Notes under the pieces: generated by a model
The model's database searches: none
What the model saw: the letters and a program-made list of their open reading frames with translations, nothing else
What the model was told of the DNA's origin: nothing
Shown here: positions 45,927-64,000 of the stretch, piece after piece
Numbering within the stretch: the first letter of the stretch is position 1
Layout: each line of letters begins with the position of its first letter
DNA from: Pseudobdellovibrionaceae bacterium
GTDB taxonomy: Bacteria; Bdellovibrionota; Bdellovibrionia; Bdellovibrionales; Bdellovibrionaceae
Assembly (NCBI GenBank): GCA_039810425.1
Contig: JBDHWW010000013.1
Coordinates: 1-64,000, forward strand
Length of the DNA stretch: 64,000 nucleotides
Direction: 5' to 3'
Position numbers and translations under genes: made by a program

Positions 45927-46393
45927 AGGGTCTCCTTTGGTATTTCTGGTTGTTGAAATAAATGATTGAGTTTGAGGTTGTTTTTAATGTCCCAAAAAAC
46001 CTGATTGGTCGTAGGGGCCGCCAAGCCGCCCAAGTGCTCCCGCCACGGACCACATTTTAAAAAGTCCAAGGGCTGTTTGAGAGAGTCGGGGATGTCGTCA
46101 AGACCGGTATAGAGCGCGGTCTTGAATCCCCGGTCTTGTGCCAGCCTAAGAAAATGAGTCAGGTCTTGCGGTCGCCACTCGCCACCGAGAAAAAGGACGC
46201 AGGTGATCTTGGAACCGTATTTTTCTAAAAGAGAAAGAAAAAGTTCTTCAGTTAAGGGAAAGCCATTTTTTTCAGACCACAGCTCCGGGGAATGACATCC
46301 AGGGCAACGCAGGGAACAGCCACAGACGTAAAACCCCAGACTGATGTGATTTGGAACCTCCTGGAATAAAATATCGAACTTATAGATTTTCAC
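45923..46393 (-). CDS. nrdG: Class III RNR activating radical-SAM enzyme
   Basis: CSLRCPGCHS, LGGE, LYTG, TNQ; GTG start after AAAGGA. Confidence 0.92.
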   Translation of the reverse strand: MKIYKFDILFQEVPNHISLGFYVCGCSLRCPGCHSPELWSEKNGFPLTEELFLSLLEKYGSKITCVLFLGGEWRPQDLTHFLRLAQDRGFKTALYTGLDDIPDSLKQPLDFLKCGPWREHLGGLAAPTTNQVFWDIKNNLKLNHLFQQPEIPKETL

Positions 46394-46529
46394 GGTGATC
46401 GAGTCCTTTCGATAACCAAACGATAACCGTGATATTCGGAAAGGCACTAGGGATTGGGGGATTTCATGATCTAGCTCACTAGATACGGATTTAGTGGTCT
46501 AGTTTTTTTTATCATGATACGAGGTGGCT

Positions 46530-48103: not shown

Positions 48104-48225
48104 GATGATTCCCCTTCCGAAGTTGATCATCCTGCTGCGGATAGGGAGAGCCAAGCGGTGATCCTGGTTCCAAATTAGAACTGGACCAAGGTCTTGCGTT
48201 TGTGGAAAAATGGCCCCATGATAAA

Positions 48226-49981: not shown

Positions 49982-51265
49982 ATGGAAAAACAATACTTGT
50001 CAGGCTTTGGAAATCACTTTTCGTCAGAGGCACGCGCAAATGCATTGCCACTGAATCAAAACTCTCCGCAGGTTGTGCAGCAGGGACTTTATGCCGAACA
50101 ACTGAGTGGCACGGCGTTCACGGCGCCGCGTGCTCATAATTTGGCAAGCTGGCTTTATCGTATTCGTCCTTCTGTTATGCATAAACCCTTTGTGCCGATG
50201 AAAGAGCTCACTGAAAAGACTCTTTTCAAGCCGAAACACATTAATCCAAATCAAATGCGCTGGAATCCACTTCCACTCCCTGCGGCTTCACAGGATTTCG
50301 TTGAAAGCTTGCGCACGGTTTGCGGTATCGGTTCTGCCATAGAGCAAAGGGGGTTGCATATTCACCTCTACGCCTTCAACAAAGTCATGGGCTCCCGTTA
50401 CTTCATGGATGCGGACGGCGACATGATGTTTGTGCTGCAGTCAGGCTCTATTCAGGTGAAAACTGAAATGGGGACCATTGATGCAGAGCCTGGTGAAATC
50501 GTTGTGGTTCCACGCGGTATGAGGTTTCAAGTAAATCCATTGTCCGCCGTTTGCCGCGGTTATGTTGGTGAAAACTTCGGTGCACCTTTCCGCTTGCCGG
50601 AATTGGGCCCCATTGGCGCAAATGGTCTTGCACATCCTCGGCACTTTGAAACTCCCCAAGCCGCCTTTGAGGATATCGAAGGCAAGATGGAGATTGTCGG
50701 TAAATTCTCTGATCGGCTGTGGAGCGCGGAGATGAACCATTCGCCCCTGGATGTTGTTGCTTGGCACGGGAACTATGTGCCATTCAAGTACGATCTTCGT
50801 AAATTCAATACCATCAACACGGTGAGCTTTGACCATCCGGATCCTTCGATCTTTACCGTACTGACTTCACCAAGTGATACGCAGGGAACGGCGAATGTGG
50901 ACTTTGCGATCTTCCCGCCACGTTGGATGGTGGGTGAGCACACGTTCCGTCCACCATACTTCCACCGCAATTGCATGAGCGAATACATGGGCTTGATCTA
51001 TGGTGTGTACGACGCAAAAACCAGCGGGGGTTTCGTTCCTGGTGGCGGCAGTCTTCATAACTTCTATTCGGCCCATGGGCCTGATGCTGACACTTTTGAG
51101 AATGCCAGCAGTGCGGATTTAAAGCCGCACAAGCTTGAAAACACTTTGGCTTTCATGTTTGAAAGTCGTGCGCCTTACCTGCTGACGGAATTTGCAATGC
51201 AGAAAGATTTCCTCCAAGAGGACTATCAAGACTGCTGGCAAGGCTTTAAAAAGAACTTCAAGTAA
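49982..51265 (+). CDS. hmgA: Homogentisate 1,2-dioxygenase
   Basis: GFGN...EA, YAEQLSG.AFT, HPDPSIFTVLT, RPPYFHRN.MSE.MG, HGPD. Confidence 0.96.
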   Translation: MEKQYLSGFGNHFSSEARANALPLNQNSPQVVQQGLYAEQLSGTAFTAPRAHNLASWLYRIRPSVMHKPFVPMKELTEKTLFKPKHINPNQMRWNPLPLPAASQDFVESLRTVCGIGSAIEQRGLHIHLYAFNKVMGSRYFMDADGDMMFVLQSGSIQVKTEMGTIDAEPGEIVVVPRGMRFQVNPLSAVCRGYVGENFGAPFRLPELGPIGANGLAHPRHFETPQAAFEDIEGKMEIVGKFSDRLWSAEMNHSPLDVVAWHGNYVPFKYDLRKFNTINTVSFDHPDPSIFTVLTSPSDTQGTANVDFAIFPPRWMVGEHTFRPPYFHRNCMSEYMGLIYGVYDAKTSGGFVPGGGSLHNFYSAHGPDADTFENASSADLKPHKLENTLAFMFESRAPYLLTEFAMQKDFLQEDYQDCWQGFKKNFK

Positions 51266-51945
51266 TGTTAGCTTTCGAAACCGGCGACTCGCAGCAAAAG
51301 TATCTTTTGCAGGTTCATCAGTTCGTTACGGACTTTAAAGAGCCTGCACCGTCTTTTCTGAACCTAGAAGAGATCGCTTATCTCGGCGCACTCACTAATG
51401 AAAAACGCAAAAACGAATATCTGCAGACACGTTTTGTACTGAAGAATCTTTTGGCGAAGTACATGGGGTTAGCTCCCAACGTCATTCAATTCAAAAAGGT
51501 CGGTGAGGGCAAGCCGGTTTTGATGAACCCCACTGTGCACCTCGATTTTAACTTATCCCACAGCGCCGACTACTTCGCGCTTGCGCTGTCAGAGAAGGGC
51601 GAAGTTGGTGTTGATATTGAAAAGATCCGTCAGCCTCAACATTTGACTCAGATCGCAGAGAAGTTCTTTTCAGCTTCAGAAACAGATTTGATTAAGCAGG
51701 AACCCGATCCCGCAAAGCAGACGGAGATCTTCGCCAAGTTCTGGTCCGGCAAAGAGGCCCTTGTGAAGGCTGTTGGCGGCGGTGTCTTTAAGAATGTTCA
51801 CGAAGTTTTGGTCGATGAGACCCATTGGAAAATAAAAAGGCTTCCGTTGGAATTCGGAAGCCTTTCTGATTGGGATCTACAGTTTTTTGAAACCGTTCCC
51901 GGTTACACTTGCAGTGTTGCTTATAAAACTAGTGTAAGTTCTTAA
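51265..51945 (+). CDS. Sfp-type 4'-phosphopantetheinyl transferase
   Basis: GKP, FNLSHS, VGVDIE, WSGKEALVKA.G.G. Confidence 0.92.
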   Translation: MLAFETGDSQQKYLLQVHQFVTDFKEPAPSFLNLEEIAYLGALTNEKRKNEYLQTRFVLKNLLAKYMGLAPNVIQFKKVGEGKPVLMNPTVHLDFNLSHSADYFALALSEKGEVGVDIEKIRQPQHLTQIAEKFFSASETDLIKQEPDPAKQTEIFAKFWSGKEALVKAVGGGVFKNVHEVLVDETHWKIKRLPLEFGSLSDWDLQFFETVPGYTCSVAYKTSVSS

Positions 51946-53068
51946 ACTTATCGGTTACTTTTTTACTGATCGTCATAATCTTTTCACCTTCTTCCGCGTG
52001 CGAGCAACCAACGTGTGAAGGTGCTGCGCCAGAAAGAAGAACGCCACCCTGAGACTCGTTAGTGTAAGGGAAACGATCTGTCAAAGCCGCAATAGTTACT
52101 TTACGTTTTTCTATGCTTGCTTTCAAGTCTGCAATTGCAGCTCTTTCTGCAACTGCAGAAGACGGCAAGTAATTCAGCAATTGGCTTGCAACATCGCTTA
52201 TGTCTTCATACAGTTTAAGAGCTTTTTTTGCACTTTCGTAAATATACCAGTTTCCTTCTTCTGTCGGAACGTACTTCAGAACACCATTTGAAGAGGCATC
52301 TTTCAAGATTGCTTCGATAGTGATTTCTTCAAGGAAGTAGTGCAAAAGCAAGGTGTCTTGAGCTTTTGCGAATCTTGCGAATGGCAAAGCGCTCTTTTGG
52401 CTTTTTTTGTTATCATCCAAAGACTCATCAGAAAAGATATTTTCAATGATCGCTTTAGTAATAGAGTATTCTGCTCTAATACCCTCATCGTCATAACCTG
52501 TTTCATCTGCGCGAAGCATGAACAAGTGATGCATGAACTCATGCACAAGAGTCCATCTGTTTGTGTTTTCGCGAACGATGATAGCCGCGCCCTTATGAAG
52601 CGAAGGGAAAAGAGAAGAATCTTTCTTAGGTAAATAGAGACCCAAGATTACCTGACCTTTTGGCAAATCTTTGTTTGAAGACTTCCATTTGTCAGAAATA
52701 TCTGAAGGCATTGTTTGCGCGCCAGTGTAGAGGCTTGAAGAGCAGAGGTTTGTTGGAATCAATTCAGACTTATAGACAGTCGCGCCCGTCAAGTTAACGA
52801 AACGAAGAGTTTCATCAACACTGGATGTATATACAGCTGCCAAGTAGTTCAAGTTGAACTCTTTTTCGAAGTAAGTCCGAGCTGTTTTAGACGTACCTAA
52901 AGCACTATAATCAGCAGTCCCACCTTCCGTTAAAGTGAACTGACAGCTGAAAGTGTTCATCTCTTTTGGTGCCGTTAAATTTTTGCCGTCATCAGAGCCG
53001 CTAGAACAAGCGGCGACAGAACCCAAAACAAATCCTGTTACCAGAAATTTTCCCATAACCCCAGACAT
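51929..53068 (-). CDS. Lipoprotein with HExxH zincin-like motif
   Basis: Lipobox VAAC; TLVHEFMHH; downstream EE. Confidence 0.65.
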   Translation of the reverse strand: MSGVMGKFLVTGFVLGSVAACSSGSDDGKNLTAPKEMNTFSCQFTLTEGGTADYSALGTSKTARTYFEKEFNLNYLAAVYTSSVDETLRFVNLTGATVYKSELIPTNLCSSSLYTGAQTMPSDISDKWKSSNKDLPKGQVILGLYLPKKDSSLFPSLHKGAAIIVRENTNRWTLVHEFMHHLFMLRADETGYDDEGIRAEYSITKAIIENIFSDESLDDNKKSQKSALPFARFAKAQDTLLLHYFLEEITIEAILKDASSNGVLKYVPTEEGNWYIYESAKKALKLYEDISDVASQLLNYLPSSAVAERAAIADLKASIEKRKVTIAALTDRFPYTNESQGGVLLSGAAPSHVGCSHAEEGEKIMTISKKVTDKFKNLH

Positions 53069-53206: not shown

Positions 53207-54463
53207 TTAGCGGTTCCACTTGAAGCCGATTTGGCCGCTGGCTCTCTCGAGGGCTGAGAGCTCCTGAGTGTTGTTTCCGAAGCTATAGTTTGCCTCGGCA
53301 AAGAAAGTCCAAGCATCACCCACAGCCGTGTCCCACGCCAGTTGGACGGAGGAGGACTGGTCGGTCAGGGACTGAATATAGCGAAGAAATACGTTGTTAT
53401 TCTGAATAAGGAGATCGGGTATGCGCAACGAGGCATAGCCATAGTGCTGCCCTAAGAGCTCGCGACCGGAATTTAAGATGCGTTCTAAATTTTCATTGCC
53501 ACGCGGGTGTTGCGGGACTGCCGACTGGAAAGCGGCAAGCATATCTTCTTGCAACAGGCCGCAAGAGTTGTAAACATACTCTAAGCGGAAGTCCATGCCT
53601 CCTTCCCAGCGAATTCCGCCGACGGCAAGAGTATTCCAAGTTTCATTGTTACGAACATAGACCATATCGTAGAGAAGACTAGGCGAGATGTCCGGCATGT
53701 ACTGGGCAGAACCTTGGGTATGGCGGGCATCGAGGTAGATGCTGAATCCTGGAGTGAGCTCCGAGTTAAAATATTCGCCGGCAAATGGGATCGTGTCATC
53801 GATGGTACCACCCGCCATGCCAAGGTAGTTCAAAGCATTACGGCCCCGGTATTCAATCTTAACGACTCCCTTTGGCTTGAATTTCTGCTCGTAGGTCCAG
53901 AAGGACTGACCGTTATTCATGGGCTCCGCGATGGTAATCACGCTCCAGCGGCTATTGGGGCTCCAATTGGCACGCAGAAGAAAACGTCCGTCTTCACGGT
54001 AAGTATAGGAGCGCTGATCGCGGCGGAAATGAAAGAATGGATTTGTTGGGCTGATAAACTCTGCCGGCCCCCATTGGTAGTTTTGCAGGCCTGCTGCCAA
54101 AGTCAGGCGGCGATTCGGATCGCCTTCAAGGAAAGCCTCGGGAAGAGAGGCCTCACCCGTGAATGTAGTCTTCGTCTCCTCCGTATCCAGATAGCGATAC
54201 TGATTCACCCAGCCCTGAAAGCGGGGACGAAAGACCCAATGCGTGCCACTTTGCCAAGTGTACTTGGTATTGATTCGGAGGTCCGACTGAAAACGGGCTT
54301 CTGGATTATCAAGGCGTCGGCCCGTTGGATCGATCAGGCTTTCCTGGCCCCGCTCCGTGCCTTGAGCAGAGTTGTACCACTCGATATCCCAGCGAAAGCT
54401 CTGTGCGGCGGCTGGAAGAGTCGCGCACAAGAGCAGGGCTAGAATGACCAAATTTCTAAACAT
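53207..54463 (-). CDS. Putative outer membrane beta-barrel protein of the export module
   Basis: Signal peptide; aromatic amphipathic strands; ends GFKWNR. Confidence 0.65.
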   Translation of the reverse strand: MFRNLVILALLLCATLPAAAQSFRWDIEWYNSAQGTERGQESLIDPTGRRLDNPEARFQSDLRINTKYTWQSGTHWVFRPRFQGWVNQYRYLDTEETKTTFTGEASLPEAFLEGDPNRRLTLAAGLQNYQWGPAEFISPTNPFFHFRRDQRSYTYREDGRFLLRANWSPNSRWSVITIAEPMNNGQSFWTYEQKFKPKGVVKIEYRGRNALNYLGMAGGTIDDTIPFAGEYFNSELTPGFSIYLDARHTQGSAQYMPDISPSLLYDMVYVRNNETWNTLAVGGIRWEGGMDFRLEYVYNSCGLLQEDMLAAFQSAVPQHPRGNENLERILNSGRELLGQHYGYASLRIPDLLIQNNNVFLRYIQSLTDQSSSVQLAWDTAVGDAWTFFAEANYSFGNNTQELSALERASGQIGFKWNR

Positions 54464-55772
54464 AAGTTAAGTTTTCAGCAGTGCTATTTTTAAGAGTTGA
54501 ACGGCACACAATCCATGTAGTCACGGCCGCCAAAAGACTCAAGAAAATAAAGCTAAAAACATAAAGATTCGGACTTATAAGGATGCGGAACGGGACAGGT
54601 TCAACCAGAACACCGGCTTTGTAAACGATACCCACTCCATTGAGGATAAAGGTTCCTACAATAGCAATGAGACTTCCGATCACTCCGCCAATAAACGACA
54701 GGGTTACGGCTTCGCTCACAAAGATATACAAGATCTGTTTCGGCACAAAACCGATACTGCGAAGAGTTCCGATTTCGCGCGTCCGTTCTTTCACAAGCTT
54801 CATCATGGTGTTGAAGATGGAAAGACCCGCGATTGCTACGATGATTGAAACCACGAAGTTTCTGAAAACTCCGAGGAGGCTCATCGTGCGCACGTACATT
54901 TCACCGATGATGTGGTTTTCCCAGCGAGACATGCGCTGCTGGAGACCGGCTTTCTCGGCTTCAGCGTTGAACTCTTTGATGATGCCGTCGATGTAGCTGC
55001 CTTTATCGAGGAACTTCACCGTGATGTAGCTGATATTTTTCGTGTTCATCAGCGTCTGAGCATCCTCAAGAGAGGTCGCGAGGAACTTATCGTCGATATC
55101 CTTGTAGAGCGCATCCATCAAGCCCACGACTTGCAAATCCAAAGCGTTTAATTGACCTTCAGGTGTCGTGATGTTGAGCTGAATATCCGGAGAGCTGCAG
55201 TGGAAAGGGCGGACTTCTGGTTTATAACCTGCCACTGCGTTCATCATCTTTACTTTTTGATCAGGAACGCAGCCAAGAATTTTACCGAGGGACTGTCCGA
55301 CTAAAACCGTGTGCTGTTCTTTGAGGGGGCTTCCGTAAAGAGCATTCCAGGCCCAGTCGGGGGCGCGGGTTTTTTCACCCTCAGCAAGGTCGTAGCCATA
55401 GCCACGGAAGATCGTCGACGTCTTACCGTTCGTCACCATTCCGTTAATGGAAAGGAAACGGTTGTAAGCATCGATTTTGTTTTTATATTGATCGAAGAAC
55501 TTATGTACGAACTCTTGTTCAGAAGGAGTGACTTCATACTTCCAAGGTTCTGCGCGGCCTTCGGCATGGCGGAGGTTGAGGTTCTCGACAACCACATCTC
55601 CCCACATCATGCGAGAGCGGAAGGACTCCTGATAGATTCTTTCAACGTCCTTCATGTATCCCTGGAACATCACCAGAGAAATCAAGCCCGCGGCAAGACT
55701 GATCGTTGCCGCCAAGCTTTGGCGCCAGTGCAAGAACACATTTCTAAGGGCAATTTTTAACAGACTATTCAT
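54456..55772 (-). CDS. FtsX/MacB/LolC-type ABC permease
   Basis: ALRN; large periplasmic domain; ERTREIGTLRSIGF. Confidence 0.9.
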   Translation of the reverse strand: MNSLLKIALRNVFLHWRQSLAATISLAAGLISLVMFQGYMKDVERIYQESFRSRMMWGDVVVENLNLRHAEGRAEPWKYEVTPSEQEFVHKFFDQYKNKIDAYNRFLSINGMVTNGKTSTIFRGYGYDLAEGEKTRAPDWAWNALYGSPLKEQHTVLVGQSLGKILGCVPDQKVKMMNAVAGYKPEVRPFHCSSPDIQLNITTPEGQLNALDLQVVGLMDALYKDIDDKFLATSLEDAQTLMNTKNISYITVKFLDKGSYIDGIIKEFNAEAEKAGLQQRMSRWENHIIGEMYVRTMSLLGVFRNFVVSIIVAIAGLSIFNTMMKLVKERTREIGTLRSIGFVPKQILYIFVSEAVTLSFIGGVIGSLIAIVGTFILNGVGIVYKAGVLVEPVPFRILISPNLYVFSFIFLSLLAAVTTWIVCRSTLKNSTAENLTYV

Positions 55773-56506
55773 CGGCTCAAGTTATTCACGTTAAAAAGAG
55801 AAGCCGGAAGGGATTCCGCCTTTGGTTTAGTGTATTCAATGATACTGCGGTTCTTAGGAAACTTAGAATCAGTGATTGTCATTTTGCTGATGAAAGCAAA
55901 GGTCTTACCTTCCGCCGTCATTTTATTATCATACTCAAAATTCGCCCCTTTGAACGGCGTCCCTTGAAGAGTCATGAACTCCGCCTTCAAGGCCAATTTT
56001 GACTTCTTAGAGATCCAGTACTTGATCTGATCGTAAGTAACTTGGTTCGACTTCGCTTTGAGCATCAAGACTGTCGCGTCTTCACCATTTACTTTATCAC
56101 TGCCGGCATCCTTGGCGTCGTAGTCACGGGCATAGTTTGTTGAAGCGATGTCACCATTTGCCGCTTGGCCGGAAAGCTTTTGGCGGGCCGAGATTGAAAC
56201 CGGTTTACGCAGGCTTGGTTTAAAGAACCACATATTGCGGTCATTGAACAAGAAGACTTCGCCTTTGTTACGGGCGGGAGTCAGCGCTTCGACATTGGCG
56301 TCATTGCCTTTTGCTTTAATCGTAAATGTTCTTTCGCTCTGGTCACCGTCTTCTTCAGTGATGATTTTTGCATCCCAAACAACGCCGTCTTTCAGGCCGC
56401 CGCGTGCACGGTCGCTGACTTTTAATAGCTCCGCCGCACTTTCAGCCGCTGCGGAGTGAAGCGAGTAAACTGACATGATGGCACAAAGAATAACTAACTT
56501 TTTCAT
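55769..56506 (-). CDS. LolA-like outer membrane lipoprotein-sorting protein
   Basis: Signal peptide; P...KG...L...RNMWF.KP..RKPV.IS.RQ.L.G.A.NGDIA. Confidence 0.8.
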   Translation of the reverse strand: MKKLVILCAIMSVYSLHSAAAESAAELLKVSDRARGGLKDGVVWDAKIITEEDGDQSERTFTIKAKGNDANVEALTPARNKGEVFLFNDRNMWFFKPSLRKPVSISARQKLSGQAANGDIASTNYARDYDAKDAGSDKVNGEDATVLMLKAKSNQVTYDQIKYWISKKSKLALKAEFMTLQGTPFKGANFEYDNKMTAEGKTFAFISKMTITDSKFPKNRSIIEYTKPKAESLPASLFNVNNLSR

Positions 56507-56517
56507 AAACACACCCA

Positions 56518-57819
56518 CTAGTTTGCCTGTTGTAAAAGGTGAATAATTGGCTTGTTAACAAGTTTCTTGGAAACAACGTATGCACAAATAAGACAAATAA
56601 TCATAATCGGAATCGCCAAGATGATGCAGAACCAAGTGTCTGGATTCATCATGAACTGCATATCGCCCGCAATCCCCGGGGGATCAAAGCGGATGTTTAA
56701 CGAATTCATAAGGAAGGCAATGACTTGAGCTAGAATGTAACCGCAAACTAAGCTGATCGCCGTTAAGAAAAGACTCTCAAGCGTGAATAGCCACGCGGTC
56801 TGCGCGTTCGTAAAACCAATGGCGCGTAAAGTTCCGATTTCGCGGACGCGCTCAAGGATTCCGATGGTCATAGAGTTCACAATCGACAAGGCCACAGCAC
56901 TAAAGATCAAGAAGATGAAGAAGCCCGCCATGATGTACAAGAACCCAACAGTGCCCACGTAGAAAAGGCCAATCGAGTCGTCATTAAAAGGAATCGTCTG
57001 GAAGTCGAGGCCCGCAGCATCGATCTTTGCCTGGAGTTTCTTTTGAATGCTACTAACGCTGGCGTCAGGATTCAAATAGATCGCGAGATAAGTCGCGCCG
57101 TCTGTTGCATAGAGGTTTTGTAAAACACTCAGCGGAGCAATGAGGCTCGTATCTTCGGCCATCATCATACCTGTCGTATGTTTAAAACCTAAGTTCGCGT
57201 TCACCGCATTCAGATCGCCATCAAAAGTGCGGCCTGCAAGCTGAACATCTCTTTCAGCAACTGACAAATCCGTGAACGGGGCCTTACGACCGATCAAAGT
57301 GCCTAGCTGCTTTGTCACAGAGACTGTTTCAGCAAGCGCTCCTTCAGCGTCCTTGATCGAAGGCTCTTTTGCAGAAGGCACCAGTTCAGGAGTCCAACGA
57401 CTTACTTGCGGATGAGATTGAATACGTTTTTCGTCAGAAGGGGTAATACCGTAAGCAACGAAAGGAACGGATTTGTTTCCGTTACTGAGAAGTCCCATGC
57501 CTTGCAGAACAGGAACCGTGAATTCAACCGCAGGTTCTTGTGCTGTGATCTCGCGGATTTTCTGCATATCGTCCGCGCTGAGGTGAAACTTACGAGGATT
57601 ATTGTAGAAGCCGTCCACGCCGCCTTTTTTGTAAATGGCGATATGGCCCGTGTGATTCACGTACACGGAGCTCGTGCGCATGAAGTGCTCTACGTAGATA
57701 ATGTAACCGCCTAAGAGGCAAAGGCCTGTAAAGCCCGCGATGATCGCAATCCCGGTTGAAAAGCTACGACGCTTGTTCTTCCAGAGGTTGCGAAGGGCCA
57801 TTTTGCTAAACAACGTCAT
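56518..57819 (-). CDS. FtsX/MacB/LolE-type ABC permease
   Basis: ALRNL.KNKRRS; ERVREIGTLRAIGF. Confidence 0.9.
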   Translation of the reverse strand: MTLFSKMALRNLWKNKRRSFSTGIAIIAGFTGLCLLGGYIIYVEHFMRTSSVYVNHTGHIAIYKKGGVDGFYNNPRKFHLSADDMQKIREITAQEPAVEFTVPVLQGMGLLSNGNKSVPFVAYGITPSDEKRIQSHPQVSRWTPELVPSAKEPSIKDAEGALAETVSVTKQLGTLIGRKAPFTDLSVAERDVQLAGRTFDGDLNAVNANLGFKHTTGMMMAEDTSLIAPLSVLQNLYATDGATYLAIYLNPDASVSSIQKKLQAKIDAAGLDFQTIPFNDDSIGLFYVGTVGFLYIMAGFFIFLIFSAVALSIVNSMTIGILERVREIGTLRAIGFTNAQTAWLFTLESLFLTAISLVCGYILAQVIAFLMNSLNIRFDPPGIAGDMQFMMNPDTWFCIILAIPIMIICLICAYVVSKKLVNKPIIHLLQQAN

Positions 57820-58499
57820 TCTGTGATCACTCCGTCTTGGATGCGGATGATACGGCCGACGCGATCAATGAGCTTTTCATCATGTGAACAGAACAAGAAC
57901 GTGATTTGCTTCTTTTGATTGAGTTCCAAAAGAAGGTCGATGATCTTATGGCTTGTTTTAGAATCTAAGTTCGCTGTTGGCTCATCGGCAAGAACAAGTG
58001 TCGGATGAGTCACAAGGGCGCGAGCAATCGCCACACGCTGGCGCTGACCGCCTGAGAGCTTGTCCGGCGGGTAGTGAGCAAACTGCTCAAGCTCAACGTC
58101 TTTCAACGCCGCCATTACGCGGTTCTTTCTTTCTTCAGCGCTGACTTCAGGTTGGATTACGAGTGGCAACTCGATGTTTTCATAAACATTGAGAACCGGG
58201 ATCAGATTGAATGATTGAAAGATAAAACCGATTTTATGATTTCTGAGAGAGCTTTTTTGAACTTCGTCTAAGTGAGTGATGTCTTGGCCGTCGAAAACGA
58301 TTTGTCCGTTATCAGGTGAATCGATGCAACCGACGAGGTTGAGAAGAGTACTTTTGCCTGAACCTGATTTTCCGATGAGAGCTGTGAACTCTCCTTTTTT
58401 AATTGAGAGATTCAGACCGCGCAATGCTGGCACGGTCGTCTCGCCCAGGTGATAAGTCTTAACAACGTTCTTTAAGGCGAGAATTTCATTTGATTGCAT
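57816..58499 (-). CDS. LolD/MacB-type ABC ATP-binding protein
   Basis: GKSGSGKS, LSGGQRQRVAIARAL, ADEPTANLD, SHD. Confidence 0.95.
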   Translation of the reverse strand: MQSNEILALKNVVKTYHLGETTVPALRGLNLSIKKGEFTALIGKSGSGKSTLLNLVGCIDSPDNGQIVFDGQDITHLDEVQKSSLRNHKIGFIFQSFNLIPVLNVYENIELPLVIQPEVSAEERKNRVMAALKDVELEQFAHYPPDKLSGGQRQRVAIARALVTHPTLVLADEPTANLDSKTSHKIIDLLLELNQKKQITFLFCSHDEKLIDRVGRIIRIQDGVITE

Positions 58500-58507
58500 T
58501 GGGGTCC

Positions 58508-58735
58508 CTAAGTTTTGCTATTCATGACCGAGATCAGATCCCCCACTGTTTTCACCGGGATCAAATCCTCTTGGTTTAATCTAATATTAAAAGTGTTCTG
58601 GAGATCGATGACCATGTCAATGAGGATAAAGGAGTCGATAACCAGTTCTTGAAGGACTGCGTTGTCAGTAATCTTCTCTGAAGGAACACTCAAAATCTGG
58701 CTAATGCGAGTTTTAATCTTATTATTATCTAACAT
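58508..58735 (-). CDS. Acyl carrier protein
   Basis: 75 aa, acidic; LVIDSF Ppant site; TVGDL. Confidence 0.85.
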   Translation of the reverse strand: MLDNNKIKTRISQILSVPSEKITDNAVLQELVIDSFILIDMVIDLQNTFNIRLNQEDLIPVKTVGDLISVMNSKT

Positions 58736-58744
58736 GGTTCTACC

Positions 58745-59317
58745 TTAGTCCTTCTTAAATTTTAAAATACCAGCGATGCGCTCTTCATGCTCTTTAACTG
58801 TCTTCTGATAGACTTCTTTGTCCGCATCGTAGAAGCGTTTGAGCGTCTTATCGATGTGTTCTTTGCCGTATTCGCCCTCCATGTTTTTCAGAGCTTGTGT
58901 CACCCATTCGATGTGCCACTTTTCATCTTCAACAATGAGGTCGAGTGTCTTTTTAATCTCAGGATTTAAGTCCTGAGCCTGACGATGTAGAGCATACTGT
59001 CCAATCACGCGTTTTTCAAAGATCAACGTGATGCCCAAAACTTCCATGATATTCGCCGGCATTCCCGCAGCAGAAATATACTGGTCCTGATAAGCGGTAT
59101 CGAGTTTGATGGGTTCGTGTCCAAGAGTTTGTAAGCAACGAGTCCAGAACCAAGAGTGCTGAGATTCATCGGCAAAATGTTTTGTGAGATCCGTTTGAAT
59201 CGGACCTGGCGGCAATGATTTTGCGAGACGGCCGAAAAAGAGAGCGCCCGAGATTTCACTCGTGCGATAAAAGCTCAGAAGCCATCTTTCATTCTCTGTT
59301 AAAGGCTGGATTTTCAT
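58745..59317 (-). CDS. Ferritin-like diiron-carboxylate protein
   Basis: SE...DESQH...FE...DEKWH ligand pattern. Confidence 0.8.
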   Translation of the reverse strand: MKIQPLTENERWLLSFYRTSEISGALFFGRLAKSLPPGPIQTDLTKHFADESQHSWFWTRCLQTLGHEPIKLDTAYQDQYISAAGMPANIMEVLGITLIFEKRVIGQYALHRQAQDLNPEIKKTLDLIVEDEKWHIEWVTQALKNMEGEYGKEHIDKTLKRFYDADKEVYQKTVKEHEERIAGILKFKKD

Positions 59318-60408
59318 TAGGCGCCTCCTTTAGTGAATTTTGTTTGAGCAAGGTGCTGGCAGGTTTTTCGAACGATATCTTCCATGGCTGCCGTCTTGTA
59401 ACCAGGGAGCAAAGACTGAAGAGCTTCGTTAGAAACTTCTTTCTTCACGAAGAGCTGACGGCCAAACGGAGAAATACTCGCAAGGCCCTGATTCAGAACG
59501 CTGCCGCCGAAACCTTTCATATTTGTCACGAGCGTATCAAAAGATTTCTCGTCAGCAAAAAGAGGCTTTAGCAAACGTCTTGATTTAAACATTTCGTCTT
59601 TGTTGAATTCTTCAAAAGCAATATCAATAAATCGACCGAGTGGAATACTCGCGGCTTGGTCGTAACAGACGTGATAGATTTTCTGACTCTGACCTTTGTT
59701 CACGACTGCGGCTAAAGACTTCGCAGTGAATTCGCCGTCCACAAGGTGAATCGGTGTTTCAGCACGGCCCGGAAGCAAAGAAATCAAACCATAGTAGAAA
59801 AGCTTAAGAGTGTTATGAATGGCGTTGTGCTGAATCACGGTGCCGCTATCGCCATCCGCGATGATTGTAGCAACGCGAGCGATTCTCCACGGGAGGTTCG
59901 AGAATTGAGTGCGAATGGCTTCTTCGACTTCCCATTTTGAGCGTTCGTAGTGATTTGCAAAAACAGGAGAGCTAAAGAATTCTTCCTTGATCGGGCCCGC
60001 TGCCATACCTGAAGCATAAAGAGTGCTCACGTAAGTGAAGTTTTCCAGCTTCGGCAACTCAGATACAAATTTTAATAGTGCCAAAGAGCCATCGCGGTTC
60101 ACAGAGTTCGCAGTGACTTCATCAACGTTAAACGCGGTTTTTGCGGCGTTGTGGATAATGATGTTGATATCGTTACGTTGAGCTTGCAGGTTCTCAACGA
60201 GATTTGCCAAATCACTCTGGACTATTTCAACGCGAGCGTGCTTAGCCGCAGGCACATCTTTCAAAAGATCTGCTTTGCGCTTTTCTAGCTCTTCTGCGGA
60301 ACCTGCACGCACAGGAACTAATAGAGTCTCCGAGCGTTCTGTCAGAAGTTGCTCGAGGAGTTTTTTGCCGATGTAGCCGGTGGCACCGGTCAGAAGAATC
60401 TTAGCCAT
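59317..60408 (-). CDS. Stand-alone thioester reductase-like extended SDR (NAD_binding_4)
   Basis: TGATGYIG, HNAA, YVST, YERSKW. Confidence 0.82.
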   Translation of the reverse strand: MAKILLTGATGYIGKKLLEQLLTERSETLLVPVRAGSAEELEKRKADLLKDVPAAKHARVEIVQSDLANLVENLQAQRNDINIIIHNAAKTAFNVDEVTANSVNRDGSLALLKFVSELPKLENFTYVSTLYASGMAAGPIKEEFFSSPVFANHYERSKWEVEEAIRTQFSNLPWRIARVATIIADGDSGTVIQHNAIHNTLKLFYYGLISLLPGRAETPIHLVDGEFTAKSLAAVVNKGQSQKIYHVCYDQAASIPLGRFIDIAFEEFNKDEMFKSRRLLKPLFADEKSFDTLVTNMKGFGGSVLNQGLASISPFGRQLFVKKEVSNEALQSLLPGYKTAAMEDIVRKTCQHLAQTKFTKGGA

Positions 60409-61273
60409 TTTGGATCTCCTTCATCGGCCAGTGAGCAGGATTTGTCCCGTAACGGCTGATAATAGCAAAGAGCCATCTTTCTAAACCGAAAGCGATGCAA
60501 GCGCTGGTCGCTGTTTCGCCTTGGTATTTGATGTTAAAACTTTCGCCAAAGTAGTCTTTGTGGAAATTGGTCGAACCAATCGAGAGGTCTTTGTTAAAGA
60601 TCATCTCGTGTTTTACAGGGTCTAATTGCTGCATGATGAACTTCGGATTGCTCTCTGGATTAAAGAATGGATCCGTTGCTACTTCCCATGAAATGCCGAG
60701 ATCGAGCTTCGCAAGCTTTTCAGTCACGATATCGCGGTACTTCTTTACGAAGCTGCGAACGTGATCTTGGGGGCCGATGCAAACGATCTCACGCATATTG
60801 AAAGACCACTGACGTTGCAAAGGTTTGTAGTAAAGTTCACGACGGAAGCAATTCGCACGTGTTGTCAGGTGCAAAGGCTCTTGCAGATCCTGATCTTGGA
60901 AGTGGATATAGAAATGATAACAAGCGGCCGGTGTTAAACAGTCGCAGACCTTGTCGATTTCAGTAAGATGGACTTTGCCATCGCTAAAACGTGGGCCTTC
61001 AGTGAACTTTTCCAGGTTCTTGGCGTCGTTTTGATCCAAAGCCACCGGGAAAGTAATTAAATGAGGGAATGATTTAAAATAATCAAGCTTGTTGAGTTCC
61101 GCCGCTTGAATGAAAGGCGGGAAATAAAATTCACGAGCCTGGGCCGTCGCTGCGATTCTTAAAAACATCGCATCAAGAGCTTTAAAGAGCTCAAAAATAG
61201 ATCCGCTCAGATTTGATTGTCCGTTTGGAATCCATTTATAGCCAGGAATCTCGGTGAATTTGATTTCACTCAT
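60401..61273 (-). CDS. Seryl-tRNA synthetase-like amino acid:[carrier protein] ligase
   Basis: 290 aa with no tRNA-binding domain; YFKSFPH, LTPAACY, CFRRE..RQWSFNMRE, DPFF, SACIAFGLERW. Confidence 0.85.
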   Translation of the reverse strand: MSEIKFTEIPGYKWIPNGQSNLSGSIFELFKALDAMFLRIAATAQAREFYFPPFIQAAELNKLDYFKSFPHLITFPVALDQNDAKNLEKFTEGPRFSDGKVHLTEIDKVCDCLTPAACYHFYIHFQDQDLQEPLHLTTRANCFRRELYYKPLQRQWSFNMREIVCIGPQDHVRSFVKKYRDIVTEKLAKLDLGISWEVATDPFFNPESNPKFIMQQLDPVKHEMIFNKDLSIGSTNFHKDYFGESFNIKYQGETATSACIAFGLERWLFAIISRYGTNPAHWPMKEIQNG

Positions 61274-61524
61274 GTCGCACTCCCAAAGAAGGAAGCATAA
61301 ATGCTGTCAATCGTGTTGAAAGCACCTGGCTTGATGGCTTTGAGGTTAAATTTGGAACCTTTGATTTTCTCAACTTCCAAAATCAACTCCATCACGTGGA
61401 GTGAGCTTAAAATGCGGGTTTCCAAAAGGTGTGTATCAAAGGCAAGCTCTGCCCCAGTCACTTTCTTAGACTTTTTCAAAACCCATTGGCGGAGTGTTTC
61501 TTTGACTTCTTGTTCTGTTTTCAT
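61270..61524 (-). CDS. Aminoacyl/acyl carrier protein
   Basis: 84 aa; LLETRILSSLHVMELI Ppant helix; overlaps both neighbours. Confidence 0.75.
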   Translation of the reverse strand: MKTEQEVKETLRQWVLKKSKKVTGAELAFDTHLLETRILSSLHVMELILEVEKIKGSKFNLKAIKPGAFNTIDSIYASFFGSAT

Positions 61525-62384
61525 AACTCGAAAATCTCCTCGATAATGCCACATTTTTTCAGATAATTTAAACTTACACGAGATGCGCGGACGCGGTGTT
61601 CGCGGGCTTTGTCGCTTTCAAACACGCGAGAAGCCAAGTCGTAAGCGTCTTCAATGCCGGCATCTACGTAGATGTCTGGATTGTAGTATTCACGCCAAGT
61701 TGTTACATAGTAACCACGAATGTAGTCGCGAATCCCTTGCAGAGTTTCCGCCGACCACTGTGGAGAGAATGTTTTAAATAGATCGTTCAAAATCACACGG
61801 CCAAACGCCAAGTGACGAACTTCATCTTCGTGGTGATTCGCATTGATATCGCGAGAAAGCTGCATCACGCGCTCATCTCGAGCTGTCGTTACGTTGTAAT
61901 AGTCGACGATCTCTTCGAAAACGAAGACTTTAATAAAAAATAAAAACTCTTCTTCGCCGGTTGCATATTCACGCGGGAAAACGATTTTGCGATCAGGATA
62001 GATCTTGCCTGCGTACTTTTCACAGAAAGTACCGAAGAAGTACATGTGTTTGTTTTCTTCATCGATAAAGTGATGGATATAGTCCGTCACATCTTGGTTT
62101 TCACTCTCGTACAAACGGCGAGTAAGTCCCTCAAGCAAGGACTTTTCACCATGAACATTCAGACTAAAGAAATTCACTTCTTCAAAGAAGCTGAGTTTTT
62201 TCTTTTGCTCTTCATTGAGAGCTTCCCATTCAGGGGAACCATAGATAGAGATGAGCTCGGGGCTTACAAACCAGTTATTCTTCTCAAGCTGCTCAGGGAA
62301 TTGAATATGAGTAAACGGATTGTAGAATCCTTTAATCGATTGAGCAGTCAGTTTTTTAGCAACTTGTGAGATATCGTGGCTCAT
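61521..62384 (-). CDS. AurF/CmlI-like diiron N-oxygenase
   Basis: GE...DEENKH...EE...HHEDEVRH pattern, including the extra His typical of AurF. Confidence 0.8.
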   Translation of the reverse strand: MSHDISQVAKKLTAQSIKGFYNPFTHIQFPEQLEKNNWFVSPELISIYGSPEWEALNEEQKKKLSFFEEVNFFSLNVHGEKSLLEGLTRRLYESENQDVTDYIHHFIDEENKHMYFFGTFCEKYAGKIYPDRKIVFPREYATGEEEFLFFIKVFVFEEIVDYYNVTTARDERVMQLSRDINANHHEDEVRHLAFGRVILNDLFKTFSPQWSAETLQGIRDYIRGYYVTTWREYYNPDIYVDAGIEDAYDLASRVFESDKAREHRVRASRVSLNYLKKCGIIEEIFEL

Positions 62385-62385
62385 A

Positions 62386-63336
62386 CTACACCTTCTCTAA
62401 GATGACGGCCTGCCAGTTCAAACCAAAGCCTGCCATGAAAAGCAGTAACTTCTGGCCTGGTTTTACAAGCTTGTCTTCTTCGATTTTAACCAAGTTCACA
62501 ATATTATCAGAACTGATGATGTGGCCGACTTCCTGAATAGATTTGAAGTAAACTTTTTCAAACTCAGTTCCCAAAAGGCGGGATAAAATCACCCATGCAT
62601 TCACATTGGTGTTCTGAGGGATAATCCAGTCGATATCTTCGATTTTAAGACCGGACTTATCAAAAAGCTCCGTGAGGAGTCTATGAGTATAACTGAAATA
62701 GCTGCCGACAGTTTCGTCGTCATTCGCTTGCGCCATAGCGCCGTTCGTCAACGCATGTGTTGCAATCAAGCGATAACCTTTTTCTTCGTCGCTCACCACA
62801 CAAGCAGCAGCGCCGTCAGAAATTACATTATAAGCCTGTTCGTAAGAAGCGCCTTCTGGAAAGCGATCTGCTGTTACGCAGAGGATTTTCTTTTGCTCTG
62901 GCTCTGACAAGATCAAAGCACGGGCAAGGCGCAAAGATCCAAGCATGCTCGTGCAAGCCTGCTGGTTCAGTCCAAGTACGGCCGCACTTTCAAGACCAAA
63001 ATCGGCTTGTAAGTGGCTCGCTGGATAGTCCATGAGGTATTTCACATCACGGCTTTCTTTAAATTTATTAAAAGATCCGATATTGCCATTCAAAGGAAGG
63101 CATGTCGCATAGACAATCGAGTTCACGTTTGTCAGCGCGTTCTTAATCTGAGAAACTGCGCCCACAGCCAAGTCATAGGCATTTTGCGAAGGTGAACTCA
63201 TGCGGTGAAACGCAAAGCCCGCCTCAACAAATTGCTGGTAGTCAGTGAGAAGACGGCCGGCCTTAGACGATTCTTCAATCGACACTCTCTGGTCACCCAG
63301 GAAATAAGCCAAATCGTGAACGAAAACGGATTTCAT
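62386..63336 (-). CDS. KAS III-like (thiolase-fold) enzyme with Cys-Gln-His residues
   Basis: QQACTS catalytic Cys, SDGAAA, IIPQN, GHIISSD, AGFGLNW. Confidence 0.8.
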   Translation of the reverse strand: MKSVFVHDLAYFLGDQRVSIEESSKAGRLLTDYQQFVEAGFAFHRMSSPSQNAYDLAVGAVSQIKNALTNVNSIVYATCLPLNGNIGSFNKFKESRDVKYLMDYPASHLQADFGLESAAVLGLNQQACTSMLGSLRLARALILSEPEQKKILCVTADRFPEGASYEQAYNVISDGAAACVVSDEEKGYRLIATHALTNGAMAQANDDETVGSYFSYTHRLLTELFDKSGLKIEDIDWIIPQNTNVNAWVILSRLLGTEFEKVYFKSIQEVGHIISSDNIVNLVKIEEDKLVKPGQKLLLFMAGFGLNWQAVILEKV

Positions 63337-63338
63337 TA

Positions 63339-63902
63339 TTAAGCTCCGAGTTTAGGGAAGAAGCGACCAGTCGTTTTCATATAGTTTTGGTATTCGGAAC
63401 CGAATGCTGAGTTCGACAAGTTGTTTTCTTCGCGGGCCGCCGTGCGGTTCAAGATCACGATACACCAAACCATACCCAAGAATGTAATCAAGTGAGGCAT
63501 CATGATGATTGAAGCCAACTGAGCCGTGATGAAAGAGCTATAGAATGGGTGACGGATGTATTTGTAAGCACCCCAAGTTACGATGTTTGCTGGTGCATCG
63601 TTGTTTTGGTGCCAAAGAGCGAGTGGGATACGGTGAGTACCCATCGTGTATGAGATCATGCCGATAGAGAAAGAGCTCAAGATGACGACGGCGATTTCGC
63701 CAGCCAACGGAATTGACCAGTACAACTCGAGGCTGATGACGCCGAACTGTTGCAAGAAGATGAGGACTGCATTCAAGAACAAAGGACCCGCTGTCATCCA
63801 CCACATCAAATTATAGCGGCCGTCTTTTTTAAAGAAAATGCGTGGAAGAATGCCGATATAAGCGAAATTTACGAGGAGTAAAGTGACGAGAGTCCTGTTC
63901 AT
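63339..63902 (-). CDS. Isoprenylcysteine carboxyl methyltransferase (ICMT/PEMT) family membrane methyltransferase
   Basis: TM helices; GAYKYIRHPFY, REE..L...FG.EY..Y...TGRFFP. Confidence 0.88.
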   Translation of the reverse strand: MNRTLVTLLLVNFAYIGILPRIFFKKDGRYNLMWWMTAGPLFLNAVLIFLQQFGVISLELYWSIPLAGEIAVVILSSFSIGMISYTMGTHRIPLALWHQNNDAPANIVTWGAYKYIRHPFYSSFITAQLASIIMMPHLITFLGMVWCIVILNRTAAREENNLSNSAFGSEYQNYMKTTGRFFPKLGA

Positions 63903-64000
63903 ACGGTGATCCTTTGTTTTAATAAGAGTTCTTTAACTAAATTCTTTTTAACTTTTAATGTTGTTGTTTTAGGAAGCGGTTCGGTGAGGAAGATGAATTT

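Follow-up and report, generated by a model that had tools for sequence, protein, structure and literature searches.

A conserved NRPS/PKS-free operon with two carrier proteins and a seryl-tRNA synthetase-like ligase: a candidate pathway to an acylated, N-oxygenated amino acid lipid

Amino acid:[carrier protein] ligases of the Bll0957, Bll6282 and Atu2573 type (PDB 3MEY, 4H2S), reportedly described by Mocibob in 2010 and 2013, possess a seryl-tRNA synthetase (SerRS) core without tRNA-binding domain, a Cys/Glu/Cys site and an adjacent cognate carrier protein (CP), as does the ligase of the operon described here. Oxidation of a carrier-bound amino acid by an AurF-like enzyme, reductive release and fatty acylation are combined in the ham pathway of fragin and valdiazen. 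That pathway relies on an NRPS of A-T-R type and a C domain, together with a cupin, an aminotransferase and a diiron enzyme of the heme-oxygenase-like kind. The columbamides and serinolamides are NRPS/PKS based and unite a fatty acyl-ACP, an amino acid, reductive release and an O-methyl ether. Glycine-nitronate cassettes are said to have been treated by He and Ryan in 2021. According to the available sections of the sources, the enteromycin carboxamide/akazaoxime and althiomycin (Alb2/AlmD) systems and the nitronate-monooxygenase cassettes share carrier-bound glycine, an AurF-type N-oxygenase and SAM-dependent O-alkylation (PMC9967187, PMC12154687, PMC3445576). In the available passages of a 2022 review, the biological role of the ligase-loaded amino acid is given as unknown (PMC9437257).

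Operon structure and protein families

The window (the whole stretch of 64,000 nucleotides that was analyzed) carries 13 intact minus-strand ORFs from 63902 down to 53207, and the gene order and tight packing given in the preliminary description were confirmed, with intergenic distances of -8 to +9 nt. However, the operon of this Bdellovibrio-type bacterium consists of 14 genes, since an AMP-binding acyl ligase gene, missed before, stands first, ahead of the ICMT gene. It is located at 63899-65551 of contig C13, shares 4 nt with the beginning of the ICMT gene and extends beyond the window. The region 63903-64000 (GC 0.31), earlier taken for an AT-rich promoter, is the 3′ end of this gene and therefore coding DNA. 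With the acyl ligase gene included, neighboring genes overlap at 9 of 13 junctions. The features are:

63899..64000, minus: 3′ end of the acyl ligase gene, AMP-dependent fatty acid ligase, 550 aa in full (PF00501, E 2.6e-61)
63339..63902, minus: ICMT-family membrane methyltransferase, 187 aa (R117-H118-P119, Y121, E158-E159 conserved)
62386..63336, minus: KAS III-fold acyltransferase, 316 aa (C128, H272, D277 invariant; Q241 at the FabH His position)
61521..62384, minus: AurF/CmlI-fold diiron oxygenase, 287 aa (E80, E110, H113, E157, H184, E188, H191 invariant)
61270..61524, minus: aminoacyl carrier protein (CP), 84 aa (invariant Ser41, codon at 61404)
60401..61273, minus: SerRS-like amino acid:carrier-protein ligase, 290 aa (C118, E162, C259 as candidate Zn site; A261)
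59317..60408, minus: stand-alone thioester reductase, R-domain-type SDR, 363 aa (Y154, K158 invariant)
58745..59317, minus: small ferritin-like diiron protein, 190 aa, putative ADO-like fold (E21, E51, H54, E101, E132, H135 invariant)
58508..58735, minus: acyl carrier protein (ACP), 75 aa (invariant Ser35, codon at 58633)
57816..58499, minus: LolD/MacB-type ABC ATPase
56518..57819, minus: FtsX/LolC-type permease 1
55769..56518, minus: LolA-like periplasmic protein (PF17131)
54456..55772, minus: FtsX/LolC-type permease 2
53207..54463, minus: signal-peptide protein, probable outer-membrane barrel (no Pfam match)
51929..53068, minus: lipoprotein-like ORF, 379 aa, between barrel and PPTase
51265..51945, plus: Sfp/HetI-type PPTase, convergent

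Pfam cut-offs were exceeded by the ICMT (PF04140, 29.4 bits, cut-off 24), the KAS III, the AurF-like protein (PF11583, 104 bits, cut-off 29.6), the class II aaRS core, the reductase (NAD_binding_4), the ACP, the ABC ATPase, both FtsX permeases and the LolA-like protein. Most family assignments made earlier thus stand, while the ferritin-like protein passed the cut-off for Rubrerythrin only. The 84-aa CP and the outer-membrane protein gave no Pfam match; the former is backed by its invariant Ser, the latter by a signal peptide and by Atlas neighbor clusters automatically named for an alginate-export domain, which have no common Pfam. A profile search found no A, C or PKS domain in the operon proteins, in agreement with the preliminary description.

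The most probable start of the CP is 61524, where it overlaps the AurF stop. It was found adjacent to the ligase in 77 of 80 loci, and its candidate Ppant Ser is invariant in 78 sequences. The ligase is a class II SerRS catalytic core lacking the tRNA-binding domain, with Bll0957 as best PDB match (E 2e-30, residues 43-285). C118, E162 and C259, which we take to be Zn ligands, align with the Bll0957 residues and are kept in 81/81 sequences. Ligases of the Bll0957 type load Gly, Ala or Ser on the CP at the expense of ATP; A261, present in 79/81 sequences, suggests glycine as the substrate here, as Ala at this position presumably favors Gly. With 139.7 bits against a cut-off of 357 for the NCBIfam equivalog NF005479, the ligase is, judged by this score, a homolog of that family but of a different subfamily.

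The top fold matches of the AurF-like protein are CmlI (Z 21.4, rmsd 3.4, 266 aligned) and AurF (Z 20.4, rmsd 3.8, 280 aligned). Its candidate 3-His/4-carboxylate ligand set, with Glu80 as putative first of seven diiron ligands, is invariant in 74/74 sequences, as is E109-E110-x-x-H113. In the accessible part of one source, this type of motif is largely unique to N-oxygenases, and in CylC-type enzymes the motif is QExxH and the site open (PMC12101540). A CylC-type halogenase was rejected, since QExxH is absent and EExxH with the invariant E157 is found instead.

The KAS residues C128, H272 and D277 are invariant in 68/68 sequences. The Cys-His-Asn triad of a decarboxylating KAS III/FabH was rejected, as the FabH His aligns with Q241 and the FabH Asn with H272, both invariant. 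The His-Asp spacing (five apart) equals that of H296/D301 in ChlB3, whose family forms C-N, C-O and C-S bonds according to the available sections of PMC9573744, and at sequence level the residues make up a ChlB3/CerJ-type Cys-His-Asp acyltransferase triad. The reductase shows a Rossmann glycine motif and YxxxK and falls below the cut-off of TIGR01746 (93.9, cut-off 213).

For the ferritin-like protein, two folds match about equally well, the aldehyde-deformylating type of ADO 5ux2 (Z 18.4, rmsd 2.7, 179 aligned, 14% identity) and that of the functionally unassigned protein 3ez0 (Z 18.3). A candidate 2-His/4-carboxylate site is present; Foldseek gave no match at E <= 0.001 and Pfam no ADO match.

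Conservation and exchange of genes

Of 53 related loci with good flanking sequence, which come from many phyla, 46 possess the entire nine-gene core (acyl ligase, ICMT, KAS, AurF-like, CP, amino acid:CP ligase, reductase, ferritin-like, ACP). All 20 ferritin-anchored metagenome loci in which the upstream sequence reached 4.5 kb or more also contain reductase, ligase, AurF-like and KAS genes, which argues for an association beyond chance. The AurF-like/CP/ligase trio forms a portable module. An acyl ligase homolog occurs in 66 of 80 related loci, 19 of the 66 being more distant (<30%); the one distant acyl ligase scanned has a FAAL-type C-terminal domain.

The ferritin-like protein is lost with the acyl-ACP, not with the reductase. 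Ferritin-like and ACP genes are both present in 67 of 71 loci, both absent in 4, and never found alone; the ACP occurs in 55/55 ferritin-anchored loci having downstream DNA, the reductase in 43/43 ferritin-anchored metagenome loci. In four genomes that retain KAS-AurF-CP-ligase-reductase, a genome-wide search for the ferritin-like gene gave no match, the control genome G609 being matched.

The ICMT residues of the RHPxY and EE motifs, which have a role in this enzyme family, are at least 90% conserved (61 sequences). Among 76 loci, 60 have only the ICMT, 14 only a DUF3419 gene, none both and 2 neither. The exchange requires five parsimony switches on the tree, and in locus L034 a C-terminal ICMT fragment (38.6 bits) lies directly ahead of the DUF3419 gene; of the 14 DUF3419 assignments, 4 rest on divergent matches (28-37 bits). 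DUF3419 is the aminocarboxypropyl-transferase domain of BtaA, as given in the accessible part of 10.1101/2023.01.24.525350. Since ICMT and BtaA-like genes never occur together intact, they seem to serve one interchangeable O-alkylation step. Methylation, as proposed earlier, would occur in this operon with its ICMT, but it is an optional step that alternates with the BtaA-like one.

The exporter lies outside the conserved core and is largely lineage-specific: its genes occur in 6 of 43 loci and outlast loss of the core, so it is not strictly the dedicated part it was taken for. The PPTase is the only one of Sfp/HetI type found in the genome and accompanies the cassette in L002 and L003. The 379-aa ORF, present in genome G005 and in 0 of 80 related loci, is outside the conserved cassette.

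In the diiron tree, which took in no characterized nitronate- or oxime-forming sequence, a sister clade of the AurF-like enzymes was recovered (support 0.98), and the KAS-type diiron clade as a single group was weakly supported (0.53). The sister genes adjoin a nitronate monooxygenase gene in 5/12 and in 4/9 further loci and often stand beside the same CP and ligase; all four genes occur in L096-L098, L141 and L142. This points to N-oxidation of glycyl-CP, and we infer that the AurF-like enzyme oxygenates the CP-bound amine. The sister enzymes (32-37% identity to the AurF-like clade) have Ile at the Glu80 position, so the oxidation endpoint may differ. No nitronate monooxygenase is encoded in the operon, and tblastn with one such query (E 1e-5) gave no match in the genome (G000).

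The cassette was found in records titled Bdellovibrio sp. HCB337, Kineosporia mesophila JCM 16902, Streptomyces sp. NPDC050625 and Krasilnikovia sp. MM14-A1259. The pathway is apparently widespread and without characterized counterpart: as presumed earlier, the literature search, in which He and Ryan 2021 was represented by citing passages, returned no description of such a cluster.

Proposed pathway and competing readings

From the observed genes, their coupling, conserved residues, folds, co-occurrence and swaps we infer each of the following reactions, with glycine as substrate. In this accessory two-carrier line, the PPTase would prime CP and ACP, the SerRS-like ligase would put glycine on the 84-aa CP, and the AurF-like enzyme would oxidize the bound amine to a hydroxylamine, oxime or nitronate. 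In a parallel and optional arm, the acyl ligase would load a fatty acid on the 75-aa ACP, where the ADO/BioE-fold diiron protein may oxidize the chain (hydroxylation, desaturation or cleavage). The Cys-His-Asp KAS would acylate the oxidized glycine unit at N or O with the fatty chain and the thioester reductase would free this unit from the CP as aldehyde/alcohol, in either order. A SAM-dependent enzyme would then alkylate a single free oxygen, most probably that of the N-O group, with methyl here (ICMT) and 3-amino-3-carboxypropyl in the DUF3419 variants. The lipophilic product would exit through the lineage's own lipid exporter, here the LolCDE/MacB-type ABC transporter with LolA-like shuttle and barrel. 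The NRPS/PKS-free line to an acylated, N-oxidized amino acid lipid proposed before fits gene content, active-site residues and folds; that its product is an exported fatty-acylated, N-oxygenated, O-alkylated glycinol lipid is given not quite even credence. More doubtful is a hitherto undescribed, phylum-spanning class of NRPS/PKS-free pathways to lipids with an O-alkylated N-O group, with loading by a class II aaRS paralog and interchangeable ICMT/BtaA-like caps. Its N-O group would be an N-alkoxyamide, oxime ether or O-alkyl nitronate, and the BtaA-like cap would give a canaline-like N-O-homoserine ether.

The polarity may also be reversed, which we consider unlikely. The reductase would convert the acyl-ACP to a fatty alcohol, the CerJ-like KAS would add to this alcohol nitroacetyl or hydroxyimino-acetyl from the CP as a malonyl mimic, and the ICMT or BtaA-like enzyme would O-alkylate the nitronate or oxime. 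The result would be an O-alkyl nitronate or oxime of enteromycin type, esterified with the fatty alcohol. In line with this, ICMT enzymes methylate acidic oxygens on lipophilic substrates, the sister clade is linked to nitronate monooxygenase and methyltransferases, and the reductase has the male-sterility/FAR family as top Pfam match and a fatty acyl-CoA reductase (7eoz, E 1.4e-15) among its PDB matches. As described in the available sections, CerJ transfers malonyl onto a hydroxyl (PMC9573744), and a diiron oxygenase and an O-methyltransferase produce O-methyl nitronates on carrier-bound Gly (PMC9967187). However, the top three PDB matches of the reductase are NRPS/PKS R domains, its gene adjoins that of the SerRS-like ligase in 65 of 71 loci and is retained in L160-L163, where ACP, ferritin-like protein and acyl ligase are gone, and this route would use up the free lipid alcohol, the kind of acceptor that BtaA itself takes.

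A phosphorus-free structural envelope lipid instead of a secreted bioactive, or desaturation or hydroxylation of carbon, rather than oxidation of nitrogen, by the AurF-like enzyme, appears quite improbable. The BtaA-like variant recalls betaine-lipid chemistry and the exporters are of lipid type (Lol/MacB-like here, MMPL in five loci and L159, HlyD/FtsX in cyanobacterial loci), but the patchy distribution (4 of 36 same-family genomes) and the clean loss in G002 argue against an essential lipid, and N-oxygenation is favored by the link to nitronate monooxygenase as well as by the 3-His/4-carboxylate site.

It is very unlikely that the KAS C-acylates nitroacetyl-CP, a pre-activated carbon nucleophile, without decarboxylation, followed by reduction to a sphingoid-base-like 2-nitro or 2-oximino long chain. 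This would account for a KAS lacking the FabH decarboxylating His/Asn yet keeping Cys128, and for the nitronate-linked sister clade, but two carbonyls face one reductase, and Cys-His-Asp enzymes are described, in the part of PMC9573744 available, as heteroatom acyltransferases. Just as unlikely is deformylation of the reductase's aldehyde by the ferritin-like protein, with glycine C1 lost as formate and an N-methyl-N-alkoxy amide or fatty-chain alkane as product: four of its six top fold matches have ADO activity and in 37 of 69 loci its gene comes immediately after that of the reductase, but it vanishes with the ACP while the reductase persists, adjoins the ACP more often (54 of 63), and has in BioE, according to the accessible sections, a precedent for the same fold acting on acyl-ACP, an acyl thioester (PMC12704756).

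As a candidate route to the acylated glycinol lipid, the cassette represents a complete conserved pathway for one amino acid:CP ligase subfamily, and a tRNA-synthetase-like enzyme family would gain a testable biological job. Natural deletion and swap variants predict the role of each enzyme, and since the cassette is present in cultured strains, these predictions are testable now. If the N-O-alkyl reading is true, a rare functional group would be added to bacterial lipids and new chemistry to the ICMT and BtaA families. The cassette also supplies a gene rule with which to detect clusters that NRPS/PKS-centered mining would likely overlook.

Comparison with known systems

Unlike Bll0957-type ligases, whose reported neighbors are acyl-CoA-dehydrogenase-type and glycan genes in the available part of PMC2922099, the ligase described here is surrounded by diiron oxygenase, KAS and reductase genes. 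ChlB3/CerJ, cADO, BioE and BtaA resemble the operon proteins in the Cys-His-Asp triad, a putative ADO-like fold with candidate 2-His/4-carboxylate site and, in variants, DUF3419, but all are distant and none is known from such a cluster. With the columbamides and serinolamides the operon shares the N-acyl amino-alcohol logic, here NRPS/PKS-free. The logic of AurF-like oxidation on a carrier, reductive release and fatty acylation is common to ham, but the fragin analogy drawn earlier is loose: none of the 14 genes encodes a ham-type A-T-R NRPS, heme-oxygenase-like diiron enzyme, cupin, aminotransferase or C domain. The diiron/CP/ligase cassettes with nitronate monooxygenase are closer. Compared with the glycine-nitronate cassettes, the operon is without NRPS, PKS and nitronate monooxygenase. 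A KAS, an acyl-ACP arm, a reductase and a second diiron protein are additional, O-alkylation would fall to a membrane ICMT or a BtaA-like enzyme, and Glu80 takes the place of the Ile found in the sister clade.

Operon structure and neighboring genes

The 13 open reading frames assigned to the operon in the preliminary description were confirmed to be intact and in the proposed order, running from 63902 to 53207 on the minus strand with intergenic gaps of -8 to +9 nt. They code for an ICMT, a KAS, an AurF-like enzyme, an aminoacyl carrier protein (CP), a SerRS-like aa:CP ligase, a reductase, a ferritin-like protein, an acyl carrier protein (ACP) and five export proteins, namely an ABC ATPase, two FtsX permeases, a LolA-like protein and a probable outer-membrane barrel. 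The window covers the first 64 kb of the 75,249-bp contig C13, which carries a 14th operon gene, and a PPTase gene is convergent to the operon:

C13:63899-65551, minus strand, AMP-binding acyl ligase (550 aa), 4-nt overlap with the ICMT start
51265-51945, convergent to the operon, Sfp-type PPTase

Because the acyl ligase gene extends past the window and overlaps the ICMT start, the AT-rich stretch at 63903-64000, which had been taken for a promoter, is coding sequence within this gene. Upstream of the acyl ligase gene, ~580 bp contain no long ORF; a signal-peptide-like ORF of 70 aa also lies on that side. A sigma-70 scan of this true upstream region yielded one site (1.7 expected) on the wrong strand, and Rfam gave no match over the 18-kb locus. 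The 70-aa ORF (C13:66136-66348, minus strand, outside the window) has a signal-peptide-like N-terminus and two cysteines; a clear homolog is located directly 5′ of an ACP remnant in the same-genus genome G002. Every gene of the nine-gene core, from acyl ligase to ACP, is single-copy in the source genome, and the ferritin-like protein had no match among plasmid records. One sequencing run, probably of DNA rather than RNA, yielded nothing beyond short, scattered pieces.

Several neighboring genes lie outside the operon, all on the minus strand. Between the barrel and the PPTase, a 379-aa lipoprotein-like ORF (51929-53068) carries an HEFMH (HExxH) motif and has no family match; it is present in genome G005, which also contains all 14 operon genes at 90-100% identity, and is not found at the same site in the same-genus genomes G001 and G002. 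Positions 46580-49440, syntenic in G001, encode a papain-family (C1) protease that is secreted and has an Ig-like tail, together with a TetA-like MFS transporter that scores 391 bits where the cut-off is 475. By sequence motifs, positions 44088-46447 hold a compact anaerobic ribonucleotide reductase-like pair of a 612-aa NrdD-like and a 174-aa radical-SAM activase-like ORF. Outside the window (C13:67324-68432), an NADH-dehydrogenase-2-like gene is apparently split into 237 and 120 aa, and G001 has one ORF of 466 aa.

Distribution of the cassette and its link to the export genes

A profile of the aa:CP ligase, run against one-genome-per-species data, returned 366 related stretches, of which the best 80 were examined. 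These loci belong to Bdellovibrionota, Acidobacteriota, Nostoc/Stigonema/Dolichospermum, Obscuribacterales, Myxococcales/Kofleriaceae, Nitrospirota, Actinomycetota and Proteobacteria; the closest named relative of the ligase is from Bdellovibrio sp. HCB337 (89%). Among these best 80 of 366 loci, CP is present in 77, the AurF-like gene in 74, the reductase in 71, the ferritin-like gene in 69, KAS in 68, the acyl ligase in 66, ACP in 63, ICMT in 60 and a PPTase in 46. The nine-gene core is complete in 53 of the 80, and in 46 of 53 where flanking DNA sufficed. The ferritin-like gene served as a second anchor in metagenomes (482 relatives, best 80 examined): reductase, aa:CP ligase, AurF-like gene and KAS were found in 20/20 loci whose upstream DNA spans 4.5 kb or more, and ACP in 55/55 with downstream DNA.

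The cassette is patchy, occurring in four of 36 same-family and two of six same-genus genomes. At E 1e-30 the AurF profile matched 76/401 genomes of one actinobacterial class, chiefly through a distant generic family; at E 1e-45 it matched 33/401 genomes of one family, with 24 of these reaching E 1e-97 or better. Both 401-genome tallies include the unpublished genomes G088, G530, G601 and G680, on which no other result depends.

Among the 43 complete loci whose downstream DNA exceeds 4 kb, only six, each from Bdellovibrionota, have an orthologue of the LolA-like gene after the core. At loci L002 and L003 there is no LolA orthologue beside the cassette and a PPTase gene comes after ACP; in other lineages, the vicinity holds MMPL or HlyD/FtsX genes. 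Both G001 and G002 keep the five export genes intact at the same position near hmgA, and decayed ACP remnants (79-81% identity over 61-68 nt) lie just 5′ of the ABC ATPase gene:

G001, contig C1, L100:10335-10520, ACP remnant
G002, contig C3, L101:10218-10300, ACP remnant

These remnants mark the site where the biosynthetic core was lost. The core is located ~480 kb from the export genes in G001, and no AurF-like or KAS orthologue was found in the G002 genome. The link between core and exporter is therefore ancestral in this lineage, yet not obligatory. The notion of a dedicated exporter is weakened by the rarity of LolA and by the intact export genes of G002.

Putative functions of the core enzymes

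The aa:CP ligase matches Bll0957 (E 2e-30). Its residues C118, E162 and C259, which we take to be zinc ligands, are present in 81/81 sequences, and A261 in 79/81. An alanine at position 261 presumably selects glycine; nothing relevant to this rule was found in the open full-text literature.

The predicted model of the AurF-like enzyme (pLDDT 95.8) is nearest in fold to CmlI (Z 21.4) and AurF (Z 20.4), and a PDB search with the single sequence gave no match. E80, E110, H113, E157, H184, E188 and H191 are invariant. According to an excerpt of PMC12101540, a 3-His/4-carboxylate site is largely unique to N-oxygenases and QExxH is the mark of CylC halogenases. A CylC-type identity was rejected, as the QExxH motif is absent.

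The nearest annotated homologs of the AurF-like enzyme (33-37%) are encoded in Tistrella and Streptomyces, in cassettes with a CP, an aaRS-related ligase and a nitronate monooxygenase; Agrobacterium plasmids carry a similar set. In a tree of 108 sequences these homologs make up a 12-member clade (support 0.98); its sister is the KAS-associated group, whose 76 sequences are held together with a support of only 0.53. Nitronate monooxygenase is present in 5/12 members and in 4/9 further sister loci. The module would thus make a nitro or nitronate species, the only way in which this partner makes sense, and this agrees with the title of He and Ryan (2021) and second-hand accounts in parts of PMC9967187 and PMC12154687. 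Position 80 is isoleucine in the sister clade and glutamate in the operon's clade and the generic family, a sequence difference that would count against simple function transfer. An enteromycin or akazaoxime-type NRPS/PKS cluster, sought as a tree anchor, was recognized in none of nine sister-clade regions.

The trio of diiron oxygenase, CP and ligase is a portable module (L096, L098, L104, L135, L137-L142, L150-L158) that also occurs in the company of nitronate monooxygenase, O-methyltransferases, stand-alone C domains, type II KS genes, P450s or SAM-cycle genes, and several of these loci look like additional orphan clusters. In several actinobacterial sister cassettes (L098:8966-9895, L104:7712-8803) a conserved protein of 310-360 aa is encoded 5′ of the diiron gene; it has only a weak transglutaminase-like match (E 0.03) and is possibly an acyl transferase. 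L043 and L050 hold CP, ligase and PPTase genes beside alpha-amylase-family genes, with no diiron gene detected.

KAS keeps C128, its Q241 aligns with the FabH histidine and its H272 with the FabH asparagine; H272 and D277 are invariant. A FabH-type Claisen role was discarded, since the FabH motif is not present. By sequence, C128/H272/D277 corresponds to the triad C113/H296/D301 of ChlB3, and such enzymes form C-N, C-O and C-S bonds (PMC9573744, in part). The top PDB matches of the reductase are R domains of NRPS/PKS, followed by a fatty acyl-CoA reductase.

The predicted model of the ferritin-like protein (pLDDT 90.7) shows a 2-His/4-carboxylate residue set. Its nearest fold is ADO 5ux2 (Z 18.4, 179 residues aligned at rmsd 2.7), on a par with 3ez0, a protein of unknown function (Z 18.3), and Foldseek returned nothing at E ≤ 0.001. 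The ferritin-like gene and ACP are both present in 67/71 loci and both absent in 4/71. BioE, with an ADO-like fold, cleaves acyl-ACP/CoA and is a precedent for such activity (PMC12704756, in excerpt).

Instead of ICMT, some loci carry DUF3419, the BtaA domain, which transfers 3-amino-3-carboxypropyl from SAM to a diacylglycerol hydroxyl (10.1101/2023.01.24.525350, in part). Among 93 loci examined, the 76 with both KAS and reductase were counted and the other 17 excluded: 60 have ICMT alone, 14 DUF3419 alone, none both and two neither (L056 and L066, both short). Four DUF3419 assignments are divergent (28-37 bits; one scanned gave Pfam E 2.4e-16), and four ICMT genes of myxobacteria are encoded on the other strand, ~6 kb from KAS (194-203 bits on a profile made without them). 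A PDB search with DUF3419 gave no match. The cap type switches five times on the KAS tree, and L034 retains a C-terminal ICMT fragment directly 5′ of DUF3419. This substitution of two unrelated SAM enzymes suggests that both act on a single free oxygen in the last step. The source genome also has, on contig C63 (2772-3869, minus strand), a gene distantly related to BtaA/DUF3419 (22% identity, E 5e-15), with no cassette gene nearby.

Proposed route and comparison with known clusters

From the genes, residues, folds and co-occurrence that were observed, we infer each reaction of a route in which glycyl-CP would be formed and then N-oxidized, KAS would place a fatty acyl group on N or O, the product would be released reductively from CP, and O-alkylation and export would follow. 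The whole route, leading to a fatty-acylated, N-oxygenated, O-methylated glycinol, is put forward as a tentative, quite possibly correct reading. Reverse polarity, in which a nitronate or oxime acetate would form an ester with a fatty alcohol, appears unlikely, and a structural lipid or chemistry not involving nitrogen slightly more so. C-acylation is very unlikely. The same low probability is given to deformylation of the reductase's aldehyde by the ferritin-like protein, the initial reading from its ADO-like fold match, as four actinobacterial loci (KAS-AurF-CP-ligase-reductase-DUF3419, without acyl ligase and ICMT) have lost the ferritin-like gene together with ACP while the reductase stays, and their genomes contain no ferritin-like match anywhere, whereas a control genome did.

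The gene set was compared with known pathways, two of which were set aside. For nocuolin (noc), the enzymes described in the consulted portion of PMC9486936 are a FAAL, a KS and acyl-ACP dehydrogenases, with no aa:CP ligase among them. For cispentacin (amc), AmcH is described as an adenylate-forming 2-oxoglutarate ligase, and SerRS is not mentioned in the corresponding extract of PMC10698177. No description of this gene set was found in the open full-text literature; the cassette might appear in the supplementary material of He and Ryan (2021). Every operon part falls in a known fold or family, with aa:CP ligase, KAS and reductase below the NCBIfam cut-offs, and the gene set as a whole matches no known cluster considered here. 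The operon belongs to a genuine orphan pathway that is widespread, an apparently new form of carrier-dependent biosynthesis of amino acid/fatty acid hybrids.
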